Shown piece after piece: positions 22,441-24,175 of a DNA stretch of 64,000 nucleotides. Origin of the DNA: Enterobacteria phage GiZh; sequence record NC_054903.1; one strand, written 5' to 3'. Numbering within the stretch: position 1 is the stretch's first letter; each line of letters begins with the position of its first letter. Under the pieces are notes generated by a model, which worked only from the letters and a program-made list of their open reading frames with translations, did not search any database and had not been told where the DNA came from. Made by a program: the position numbers and the translations under genes.

Positions 22441-22473
22441 ATACCAAAAAGCCCCAACCTTTCGGCTAGGGCT
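22441..22473 (-). terminator. rho-independent terminator after the IP-like gene at 22481-22954
   Basis: Bipartite stem AGCCC...GGGCT with inner CC-UUUC-GG, followed on the minus strand by UUUUU; near-duplicate of the element at 22996-23028. Confidence 0.65.
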
Positions 22474-22480
22474 AAGAATG

Positions 22481-22954
22481 TTATTTGATTTGTTTAGCAG
22501 ACCAAATGCGGTCTTTAATAATTTTTTGGATGTCTTCAACATATTCAAGAGAGTGAACATGTGGGTTATCTTTGAAACTATAAGCACGAGCTAGCTTTTG
22601 GCCTTCAGTTTTAATTACTAAAAGCTCTTTAAGGATAGCTTCATATTTGGAGATAATTCCTTTAACAATATTTTTCTCTTGTGCGACTTTAGGATCTGCT
22701 TTAGGAGCAGGTTTACCTGAAGCCTTTGCAAAAGCAGCTCCAGTAGCAACTAAACTTTTCCAGGCCATACTAACTGCATTTCCCGTAAATCCTTCCGCTT
22801 TCATATCGCGAGCAAATTGGAATCGTGACTCATCGGAAGCATCTTTATAGGAATATTTACCCGCGGCAATGGCAGCTTTTGCAACAGCTTGAATTTCAGT
22901 GCTAGATGCTTCATTTAACACCGCTTCATTTAAAAATTGAGCATATGATTTCAT
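22481..22954 (-). CDS. internal-protein-like capsid-targeted protein, 157 aa
   Basis: N-terminus MKSYAQFLNEAVLNEAS resembles the internal-protein capsid-targeting sequence; TATAAATA late promoter at 22991-22998 upstream and hairpin terminators on both sides. Confidence 0.65.
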   Translation of the reverse strand: MKSYAQFLNEAVLNEASSTEIQAVAKAAIAAGKYSYKDASDESRFQFARDMKAEGFTGNAVSMAWKSLVATGAAFAKASGKPAPKADPKVAQEKNIVKGIISKYEAILKELLVIKTEGQKLARAYSFKDNPHVHSLEYVEDIQKIIKDRIWSAKQIK

Positions 22955-22990
22955 CTTATTTCCTGTTTTAATTTGTAGATTTAATATACT

Positions 22991-22998
22991 TATTTATA
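22991..22998 (-). promoter_or_regulatory. late promoter TATAAATA (minus strand) upstream of the IP-like gene at 22481-22954
   Basis: Plus strand reads TATTTATA, ~37 nt upstream of the ATG. Confidence 0.55.
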
Positions 22999-23028
22999 CT
23001 AAAAAGCCCCAACCTTTCGGTCGGGGCT
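22996..23028 (-). terminator. rho-independent terminator at the downstream end of the tRNA / stable-RNA cluster
   Basis: Stem AGCCCC...GGGGCT with inner hairpin, followed on the minus strand by UUUUU. Confidence 0.65.
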
Positions 23029-23077
23029 AAGCCTTGCGGCAACCTTGTCGGGGTTCCACCTGCTAAGGCAAGTGTTT

Positions 23078-23340
23078 GTACGAAACGCCGGGATTCGAAC
23101 CCGGTTATTAAGTAGTTGACGCTACTCAATATTTTTAAAAGGCCATATCTCGACCATATCCGAACGTTCCGTCAAAAACGCTACTCGGCTTACGGCAAAG
23201 ATATTTCCTCGAATCGATAATTCGGTGCGCCGTTTCTGCTGTGATGTAAGGGGGCATTAACCGATCGTAAAGATTTGTTAATGCCAGTCCTTACCCAGGG
23301 AACATCAGTCCGACGACTTACCGGTAGCGACCCGGTTTCT
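23078..23340 (-). ncRNA. putative structured stable RNA(s) downstream of tRNA-Arg (resembling T4 species 1 / species 2 RNAs)
   Basis: No ORF; tRNA-like T-arm CCGGG-ATTCGAA-CCCGG at 23088-23104; perfect 9-bp helix GGCATTAAC/GTTAATGCC (23254-23262 with 23277-23285); region ends at the hairpin terminator 22996-23028. Boundaries approximate. Confidence 0.35.
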
Positions 23341-23344
23341 TGTT

Positions 23345-23420
23345 TGGTCGAGGCAGTAGGGATCGAACCTACGACCTAGGACTTAGAAGGTCCTTGCTCT
23401 TCCTTCTGAGCTATGCCTCG
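23345..23420 (-). tRNA. tRNA-Arg (anticodon UCU)
   Basis: Acceptor CGAGGCA/TGCCTCG, anticodon stem-loop AGGAC-CTTCTAA-GTCCT, T-arm GTAGG-TTCGATC-CCTAC, CCA encoded. Confidence 0.82.
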
Positions 23421-23424
23421 GATT

Positions 23425-23499
23425 TGGCGGACGTGATAGGATTCGAACCTATAACCAATCGCTTAACAGGCGATCGCTCTGCCATTGAGCTACACATCC
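23425..23499 (-). tRNA. tRNA-Asn (anticodon GUU)
   Basis: Sequence GGATGTGTAGCTCAATGGCAGAGCGATCGCCTGTTAAGCGATTGGTTATAGGTTCGAATCCTATCACGTCCGCCA. Confidence 0.82.
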
Positions 23500-23503
23500 A
23501 AAT

Positions 23504-23590
23504 TGGTGGGGAGTGATGGAGTCGAACCACCCGAGTCGCAATGACAATGGATTTACAGTCCACACCGCTACCTCTACGGGATAACTCCCC
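23504..23590 (-). tRNA. tRNA-Tyr (anticodon GUA), class II
   Basis: Acceptor GGGGAGT/ACTCCCC, anticodon stem-loop GTGGA-CTGTAAA-TCCAT, variable arm TGTCATTGCGACTCG resembling bacterial tRNA-Tyr, T-loop TTCGACT, CCA encoded. Confidence 0.75.
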
Positions 23591-23602
23591 TAATTCATAA
23601 TT

Positions 23603-23677
23603 TGGTGGCCCTGGGTGGAATTGAACCACCATCTGGCGATTATGAGTCGCTTGCTTGAACCTTCCAGCTACAGGGCC
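23603..23677 (-). tRNA. tRNA with anticodon CAU (Ile with modified C34, or Met)
   Basis: Acceptor GGCCCTG/CAGGGCC, anticodon loop CTCATAA, T-arm GGTGG-TTCAATT-CCACC, CCA encoded; starts 1 nt after tRNA-Thr. T4 has an Ile tRNA at this position (memory). Confidence 0.75.
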
Positions 23678-23678
23678 T

Positions 23679-23754
23679 TGGTGCTGATTGACGGAATCGA
23701 ACCGCCGACCTTCTCATTACAAGTGAGTTGCTCTACCTACTGAGCTAAATCAGC
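23679..23754 (-). tRNA. tRNA-Thr (anticodon UGU)
   Basis: Acceptor GCTGATT/AATCAGC, D-arm GCTC-AGTAGGTA-GAGC, anticodon loop CTTGTAA, T-loop TTCGATT, CCA encoded. Confidence 0.85.
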
Positions 23755-23759
23755 AAAAC

Positions 23760-23849
23760 TGGCGGAGGCGATAGGATTTGAACCTATGAGTCGCCGGAGC
23801 GACTGCCGGTTTTCAAGACCGGTGCATTAAACCACTCTGCCACGCCTCC
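23760..23849 (-). tRNA. tRNA-Ser (anticodon UGA), class II
   Basis: Acceptor GGAGGCG/CGCCTCC, anticodon loop CTTGAAA, long variable arm, CCA encoded; starts 2 nt after tRNA-Pro. Confidence 0.85.
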
Positions 23850-23851
23850 AG

Positions 23852-23925
23852 TCTCCATACAAGGATTTGAACCTTGGACCTCCTGATCCCAAATCAGGCG
23901 CTCTACCAAACTGAGCTACACGGAG
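23852..23925 (-). tRNA. tRNA-Pro (anticodon UGG)
   Basis: Sequence CTCCGTGTAGCTCAGTTTGGTAGAGCGCCTGATTTGGGATCAGGAGGTCCAAGGTTCAAATCCTTGTATGGAG; CCA not encoded. Confidence 0.88.
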
Positions 23926-23935
23926 TAAATTAAAT

Positions 23936-24009
<74 letters not shown>

Positions 24010-24014
24010 AAATT

Positions 24015-24101
24015 TGGTGCGAGAAGTGGGACTCGAACCCACAAGGAAATCATTCCGCAGCATTTTAAGTGCTGTACCTTTACCAATTTGACCATTCTCG
24101 C
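24015..24101 (-). tRNA. tRNA-Leu (anticodon UAA), class II long variable arm
   Basis: Acceptor GCGAGAA/TTCTCGC, T-loop TTCGAGT, anticodon loop CTTAAAA, CCA encoded; starts 1-2 nt after tRNA-Gln (dimeric precursor arrangement). Confidence 0.85.
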
Positions 24102-24102
24102 G

Positions 24103-24175
24103 CTGGGAATAAAGGACTCGAACCTTTGCATCCTGGAATCAAAATCCAGTGCCTTACCAACTTGGCTAATTCCCA
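24103..24175 (-). tRNA. tRNA-Gln (anticodon UUG)
   Basis: Hand-folded cloverleaf: acceptor TGGGAAT/ATTCCCA, T-arm AAAGG-TTCGAGT-CCTTT, anticodon loop TTTTGAT; CCA not encoded. Ends +/-2 nt. Confidence 0.85.

Follow-up and report, generated by a model that had tools for sequence, protein, structure and literature searches.

What lies between the last gene of the tRNA cluster of Enterobacteria phage GiZh and the terminator of that cluster? In the 64,000-nt stretch of record NC_054903.1 analysed here (the window), the initial annotation had delimited an ORF-free, structured segment at 23078-23340 and had proposed that it holds the counterparts of two stable RNAs of phage T4. The region is free of ORFs of 60 aa or more, the longest there having 40 aa and 53 aa, and the interval was almost exact, the true limits being 23079-23343 (rnaC plus rnaD). 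The region consists of the orthologues of T4 rnaD and rnaC, which form the minus-strand 3' end of the tRNA operon. Both RNAs were already known and their identity is no discovery: the window holds a rediscovery of two RNAs that are annotated in T4 and have been visible on gels since the 1970s. Our best explanation joins this orthology to a tRNA-shaped rnaC, a separate rnaD module, and an inferred processing and function; we put its probability, taken as a whole, at about 0.85. Four alternatives, namely by-products, regulators, cis-acting structures and small proteins, are less likely.

Orthologues of T4 rnaD and rnaC behind tRNA-Arg

Ten tRNA genes, from tRNA-Gln at 24175 to tRNA-Arg(UCU) at 23420-23345, were identified on the minus strand by ARAGORN and Rfam, and since all ten lie on this strand the region was read on it as well. 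tRNA-Arg(UCU) (23345..23420, minus; 68 bits with the Rfam tRNA model), the last gene of the ten-tRNA operon, is the upstream neighbour of the rnaD orthologue (23224..23343, minus; 120 nt), which was delimited by alignment to T4 rnaD, or species 2 RNA. A 6-nt spacer, GAAUUA (23218..23223, minus), marks the boundary between rnaD and rnaC and is similar to the 5-nt spacers that follow the tRNA CCA in other genera. The rnaC orthologue (23079..23217, minus; 139 nt), corresponding to T4 species 1 RNA, was placed by alignment and by a covariance model. It is followed by a structured 3' trailer conserved in Tequatrovirus (23029..23078, minus) and by the intrinsic terminator of the tRNA/rnaD/rnaC operon (23000..23028, minus), a 10-bp stem with a GAAA loop whose hairpin spans 23028..23005 on the minus strand and precedes a U-run. 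The position first assigned to the region, between tRNA-Arg (23345-23420, minus) and a terminator (23028..23005, minus), is thus correct.

In the T4 record, rnaD (described as "small, stable RNA; species 2 RNA") and then rnaC (species 1 RNA) stand immediately 3' of tRNA-Arg; both are annotated at the same place in RB27, and rnaC is annotated in Kha5h. The window is colinear with all three annotations in the alignment. Over its full 139 nt, rnaC is identical to T4 rnaC (NC_000866, 70908-71046) at 138 positions, the sole difference being C for T4 U at nt 66 in the long hairpin, and it has the same length, the same strand relationship and the same place between rnaD and the operon terminator. T4 rnaD (NC_000866, 71053-71171; 119 nt) occupies the same place after tRNA-Arg and has an identical 5' hairpin, core strands and 3' end; 104 of 116 aligned positions agree (~90%), with the differences concentrated in the apical hairpin. 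The start of rnaD at 23343, compared with the end of tRNA-Arg at 23345, lies 1-2 bases past the tRNA CCA, as it does in T4. The base after the 3' ...CACC of rnaD is G in the window and A in T4, so that CCA is encoded by T4 only. Furthermore, 58 nt of the window match exactly an oligonucleotide that served as probe template for Northern blotting of T4 RNAC (PMC9697503). The colinear alignment, the agreement of the intervals and the probe match therefore support the initial interpretation, and both RNAs proved orthologous to their T4 counterparts.

The best database match to the 356 bases that follow tRNA-Arg is Escherichia phage JLBYU24, at 100%, and the window is accordingly from a Tequatrovirus. 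The segment is present in about 800 phage records, nearly all of them T4-like phages of Escherichia, Shigella, Yersinia and relatives. Each RNA has a better fold than 200 of 200 dinucleotide shuffles (z = -4.56 for 23079-23217; z = -3.24 for 23224-23343). An Rfam scan, proposed earlier as a check, gave no family match for either RNA because neither has an Rfam family: with Rfam 15 at gathering score the whole window yields the ten tRNAs only, and at E up to 10 nothing meaningful appears in 22900-23450.

The flanks of the two genes have features of their own. The trailer and terminator (22995-23080) fold with z = -4.27. Three small hairpins conserved in Tequatrovirus lie in the trailer (23029-23078, minus), which also holds CCCCGAC...AAGGUUG, a partial copy of the terminator arms; an alternative pairing with the 3' arm of the terminator is possible. 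The operon terminator is duplicated, with near-identical copies of ~36 nt at 22450-22473 and 23005-23028 on the minus strand. These repeats flank a 157-aa ORF (22481-22954, minus; PHROG 2280) that is present in RB27-type phages and missing in T4. In T4, which lacks the ORF, the single terminator carries the downstream flank of the second window copy; this suggests that recombination between the terminator repeats has inserted or removed the ORF as a cassette. Compared with T4, the cluster at 23345-24175 (minus) is without the segB homing-endonuclease gene and has an extra tRNA-Tyr and tRNA-Asn, as in RB27. The tRNA at 23603-23677 (minus) is called tRNA-Met(CAT) by ARAGORN; since the same call is given for the gene annotated as tRNA-Ile in the T4 record, it is probably the tRNA-Ile with a CAU anticodon that T-even phages carry.

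Fold and distribution of rnaC

Homologues of rnaC were gathered from phage records, viral contigs and metagenomes into an alignment (A3) of 24 distinct sequences, from which RNAalifold and explicit pair counting yield a four-way junction of helices P1-P4. In this alignment 99% of cells are paired, and compensatory double changes occur in 22 of the 39 pairs. The observed score was reached by 0 of 500 shuffles, and controls with slid partners drop to 38-51% paired. Conserved secondary structure is thus present in the alignment, and covariation shows the fold to be tRNA-shaped.

P1 is acceptor-like: its 5' strand, CGAUUCG (nt 2-8; 23210..23216, minus), pairs with the 3' strand CGUUUCG (23081..23087, minus), with two tandem U.U mismatches inside. 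The five modelled pairs (nt 2-4/135-137 and nt 7-8/131-132) flank these mismatches and are paired in 100% of cells, pair 4/135 switching from A-U to G-C in 11 of the 24 sequences. Beyond the 3' strand come U-A and then genomic CAA, the sequence past P1 being U-ACAA in most phages, including the window, and U-CCAA in the Klebsiella-phage homologues. P2, formed by invariant AGG and CCU, resembles the D-stem of a tRNA; together with the long irregular hairpin at the position of the D-loop, it occupies nt 9-78 (23140..23209, minus). Between AGG and CCU, the D-loop elements AA ... GG hold this hairpin (nt 14-73) as an insertion of ~60 nt, with compensatory changes in 12 of its 17 pairs; its apical loop, UUGACG (nt 43-48; 23170..23175, minus), is invariant at five of six positions, position 46 being A or G. 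P3 (nt 87-112; 23106..23131, minus) is a hairpin with the 6-nt loop CGUCAA (23116-23121), and eight of its nine pairs show compensatory changes.

P4 (23088..23104, minus) is a canonical T-arm, CCGGG-UUCGAAU-CCCGG, with the G53-C61 pair and a T-loop sequence. This is the tRNA-like T-arm that had been noticed at 23088-23104 as CCGGG-ATTCGAA-CCCGG on the plus strand. Its core, GGTTCGAATCC, has two copies in the 64 kb, one in tRNA-Asn and one in rnaC, against 0.01 expected. An internal acceptor stem, ACGGAACG/CGUUUCGU, which derives from a 17-bit tRNA-Sec-like alignment, was considered and rejected: across the 24 homologues it shows no compensatory change, and shuffles do equally well. In T4-type sequences, the helix may still arise as an alternative conformation. 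Since ACGGAACG/CGUUUCGU fails while the end-formed stem co-varies, the T-arm is part of the tRNA-shaped fold of the whole 139-nt rnaC and does not belong to a shorter internal tRNA-like unit. In the IME523 clade of Kanagawavirus (L016 709-848, L048, L056, L057), the T-loop is UGCAUGC in place of UUCGAAU and the GG next to P2 is CG, a joint change in a single lineage that may reflect a conserved tertiary contact at the elbow.

The likeness of rnaC to a tRNA lies in a 7-bp end-formed stem stacked next to a canonical T-arm, a four-way junction, the spacing within tRNA arrays, and a 3-bp counterpart of the D-stem with AA and GG on its flanks, comparable to A14/R15 and G18/G19. Unlike a tRNA, it is 139 nt long, with a hairpin of ~60 nt for the D-loop, two tandem U.U mismatches in the acceptor-like stem, and an 8-nt A-rich linker between P2 and P3. 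Its "anticodon" arm has 9-10 bp and a 6-nt loop, CGUCAA, without U33, compared with the 5-bp stem and 7-nt loop of a tRNA; no CCA is encoded, and rnaC stays below tRNA thresholds. RF00005 has no match in the rnaC/rnaD region at E up to 10 and ARAGORN makes no call there, the only related tRNA match at rnaC being a tRNA-Sec of 17 bits (gathering score 47). For tmRNA, the region gives only fragmentary Rfam matches of 7-10 bits (gathering score 47) and no ARAGORN call. Because the detectors fail, and because a 7-nt anticodon loop and an encoded CCA are lacking, tRNA mimicry is used for rnaC as an analogy only.

Comparable combinations are found in the tRNA-like domain of tmRNA and in the bacterial, Y-RNA-like YrlA, stable non-decoding RNAs in which an acceptor/T-arm or elbow module is joined to a large non-tRNA insertion; these tRNA mimics are substrates of tRNA enzymes. 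rnaC, by contrast, lacks a tag reading frame and a Ro-binding stem, and it alone has the inserted arm and the loop pair. Its likeness to tmRNA and YrlA is thus one of analogy and not of membership.

A covariance model (R1) built from alignment A3 gives its best score in the window at rnaC, a single match of 159.9 bits, and has no match in 758 kb of unrelated bacterial DNA. Full-length matches of 121-157 bits were obtained in Karamvirus (PG7, PS49), Erwinia phage COW86c, Moonvirus (Moon, NM4.3), Kanagawavirus (IME523, PEi20, Kosakonia 305), Gelderlandvirus (Melville, Proteus phage) and a Klebsiella-phage clade (kv_tblp8, Marfa). The copy in COW86c, an unclassified phage, resembles the Karamvirus sequences; QL01, likely a Dhakavirus, is represented in alignment A3, without R1 re-scoring. 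rnaC homologues span at least seven T4-like lineages.

In Karamvirus, Moonvirus, Gelderlandvirus and COW86c, rnaC lies inside the tRNA array, with tRNA-Trp or tRNA-Met on one side and tRNA-Gly on the other (loci L004 1509-1647, L015 710-850, L038 501-639 and L040 431-570). The distances, 5 nt past the CCA end of the upstream tRNA and 6-11 nt before tRNA-Gly in PG7, Moon, Melville and COW86c, are those of a tRNA gene. Annotations of rnaC vary among tRNA-Lys, tRNA-Met, tRNA-OTHER, hypothetical protein and nothing at all, and both ARAGORN and some GenBank records mis-call homologues as a tRNA-Met or tRNA-Lys of 94-95 nt. The ARAGORN calls at rnaC of tRNA-Lys(ttt) in G4507 and tRNA-Met(cat) in PG7 are artefacts, because their "anticodons" differ and fall in the unpaired A-rich linker.

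At the tip of the long hairpin, UUGACG (23175..23170) has its exact reverse complement in CGUCAA (23121..23116), the loop that caps P3. All six potential loop-loop pairs are kept in 24 of 24 sequences, including the Klebsiella-phage clade, where the loops read UUGGCG and CGCCAA through an A-U to G-C switch of the co-varying pair A46-U99 (rnaC numbering). Two further scans of viral contigs, one of metagenomes and one of genomes produced no new loop variants; the genome scan for distant rnaC returned chance matches only, the covariance model scoring 0 of the 100 loci searched. Because the compensatory event is single and limited to one clade, pairing of the loops, within one molecule or as a dimer, is a well-motivated hypothesis and not an established feature.

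Exposed, conserved sequences of this kind (UUGACG, CGUCAA and the A-rich linker in rnaC, CCCUG in rnaD) could also belong to trans-acting regulators whose loops pair with phage or host mRNAs. The label "regulatory RNAs" has been applied loosely by authors (PMC9697503), and a convergent rnaD SNP arose during host adaptation of a T4-like phage (PMC12685909). However, the conserved stretches are just 5-8 nt long, and the mutual complementarity and covariation of the two rnaC loops suggest an internal or self interaction over a shared external target. We therefore consider regulation in trans unlikely.

Architecture and distribution of rnaD

Eleven rnaD homologues from five lineages share one architecture. 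MAFFT/RNAalifold misaligned their non-homologous apical hairpins, and the sequences were for this reason folded individually with anchored segments. The common architecture comprises a 5' hairpin of variable sequence and an irregular rod, the latter made up of a basal stem (GUCGUCG/CGGCG-AC), a middle stem, an internal loop and a variable tip. In the window, the 5' hairpin H1, ACCGG-GUCGCUA-CCGGU (rnaD nt 8-24; 23320..23336, minus), has a closing pair that changes from A-U to G-C within Tequatrovirus, and different hairpins hold its position in other lineages. The 5' strand of the basal stem, GUCGUCG (23311..23317, minus), lies within a core, AAGUCGUCGG, that is kept in all homologues except for one base in the Jiaodavirus copy, and the 3' strand is CGGCGCAC (23225..23232, minus). 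The middle stem is short and its sequence varies by genus, yet it remains paired; the internal loop holds an invariant CCCUG.

The apical hairpin (23253..23285, minus) includes a perfect 9-bp helix that had been singled out in the initial annotation. The helix exists and the arm at 23277-23285 was given correctly, whereas the other arm is at 23253-23261, one base from the 23254-23262 reported. This helix forms the variable tip, where rnaD is conserved least and where unrelated hairpins stand in some close relatives. The near-invariant parts in Tequatrovirus are H1 followed by AAGUCGUCGGACUGAUGUUCCCUG on the 5' side and AUCACAGCAGAAACGGCGCACC in the 3' part. Covariation in rnaD is thin, being seen in H1 and in the middle stem, while the core stems are nearly invariant. 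On the plus strand, a terminator-like match at 23320-23336 is the complement of H1 plus a run rich in T and probably does not act as a terminator.

rnaD also occurs where rnaC is missing. In the Dhakavirus dhaeg (L062 601-720), rnaD continues directly into the trailer that follows rnaC in the window. In the Vequintavirinae (rV5-like) phages W70 (L061 1193-1292) and A73, whose copies are identical, rnaD comes directly after tRNA-Met(CAU), again without rnaC; the AAGUCGUCGGACUGAUGUUCCCUG and AUCACAGCAGAAACGGCGCACC core strands are exact, the 5' and apical hairpins differ, and in W70 a promoter-like sequence follows instead of rnaC. Diverged copies stand after tRNA-Asn in Karamvirus (CC31, PG7) and Jiaodavirus. 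Because rnaD occurs without rnaC, the two are independent modules that are adjacent in T4-type phages. The presence of rnaD in rV5-like phages, which are unrelated to the T4-like phages, suggests horizontal transfer of the module.

These patterns bear on the possibility that rnaC and rnaD are decayed tRNA genes or stable processing leftovers without a function. Such an origin would fit an rnaC that keeps a T-arm and an acceptor-like stem without an anticodon loop and that gene finders name Lys, Met or "OTHER" depending on the phage, and T4 does not need its tRNA region on laboratory hosts. Co-transcription of both RNAs with the tRNAs (PMC2330249) points the same way. However, 22 of 39 rnaC pairs are maintained across genera by compensation, with the two loops and the junction essentially invariant, and rnaC and rnaD are kept or moved independently, an identical rnaD core appearing in an unrelated phage subfamily. 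Compensation and independent mobility are unlike decaying pseudogenes, and we regard a functionless origin as improbable.

The region could instead act purely in cis, as a stabilising or terminating structure that closes the tRNA operon and contains no separate RNA genes; its location downstream of the last tRNA and ahead of the terminator might indicate this, as might the strong structure of the trailer. This is very improbable: in Karam-, Moon- and Gelderlandvirus rnaC stands mid-array, flanked on either side by tRNAs, the rnaD of W70 precedes a promoter-like sequence, and T4 RNAC and RNAD are discrete species on Northern blots (PMC9697503). Small proteins, suggested by the "hypothetical protein" annotations that GenBank records place over the segment in many phages and by ORFs of 34-53 aa, are hardly credible and were rejected, since these ORFs shift starts or vanish in close relatives (the start of the 40-aa ORF on the RNA strand shifts in T4 and L007, its end is earlier in T4, and it is absent from L008 and L012), substitutions are compensatory in helices with no third-codon-position bias, and unrelated hairpins replace the variable part of rnaD.

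Processing and possible function

For the favoured explanation, that of two orthologous RNA genes with a tRNA-shaped rnaC and a separate rnaD module, the account of expression, RNA ends and processing in this phage draws by analogy on work in T4. There, eight tRNAs and the species I and II RNAs derive from one primary transcript, which ends after the species I gene (PMC2330249). Northern blots of T4 show rnaC as a discrete stable RNA of ~140 nt (PMC9697503), and accumulation of rnaD as a stable RNA of ~120 nt has been reported (PMC9697503; PMC3014915). rnaD and rnaC would accordingly be transcribed in GiZh as the 3' end of the tRNA operon, with transcription stopping at the terminator at 23028..23005, and would then be excised from the precursor. 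We infer that rnaC is matured in the manner of a tRNA because it has a tRNA-shaped fold and the spacing of a tRNA gene, and because its mature ends are the ends of P1. Host tRNA-processing enzymes would recognise the acceptor/T-arm module, with RNase P generating the 5' end and exonucleases or RNase E trimming the 3' end, and this maturation would explain why rnaC accumulates as a stable RNA. Paddock and Abelson reportedly sequenced species 1 RNA in the 1970s, and RNase III cuts this RNA in vitro.

A 2010 review described the biological roles of RNAC and RNAD as unknown (PMC3014915). A 2022 omics study classed both as late RNAs, validated this on Northern blots and again gave their function as yet unknown (PMC9697503), and a 2025 evolution study, in which a T4-like phage adapting to a new host acquired a convergent SNP in its rnaD homologue, did likewise (PMC12685909). 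No functional study of rnaC or rnaD was found in the literature searched, whose coverage did not extend to the primary papers of the 1970s-80s.

As a tentative model, rnaC could imitate a tRNA without decoding and bind or titrate a host or phage factor that recognises tRNAs, and the rnaD core could be a protein-binding site. The complementary loops of rnaC would pair mutually or stay available for pairing. A more specific version is also more doubtful: rnaC would be a dedicated tRNA mimic, kept in many enterobacterial T4-like genera and with UUGACG/CGUCAA pairing inside one molecule or between two, that acts as a decoy or adaptor, and rnaD would be a mobile protein-binding module. Candidate targets of rnaC may include a host defence nuclease directed at tRNAs or an enzyme of tRNA processing or modification, and rnaD may be horizontally mobile and shared with rV5-like phages. 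T4 mutants deleted for the whole tRNA region still grow on laboratory hosts, which would make any role of rnaC or rnaD conditional.

What gives the region value beyond a rediscovery is that neither RNA has an Rfam family and that public phage records annotate both inconsistently. The comparative picture obtained here provides handles for experiments and for a proper definition of the RNA families. If true, the more specific version of the model, with rnaC as a dedicated tRNA mimic and rnaD as a mobile module, would assign a testable function, grounded in structure, to RNAs known for 50 years as species 1 and 2.
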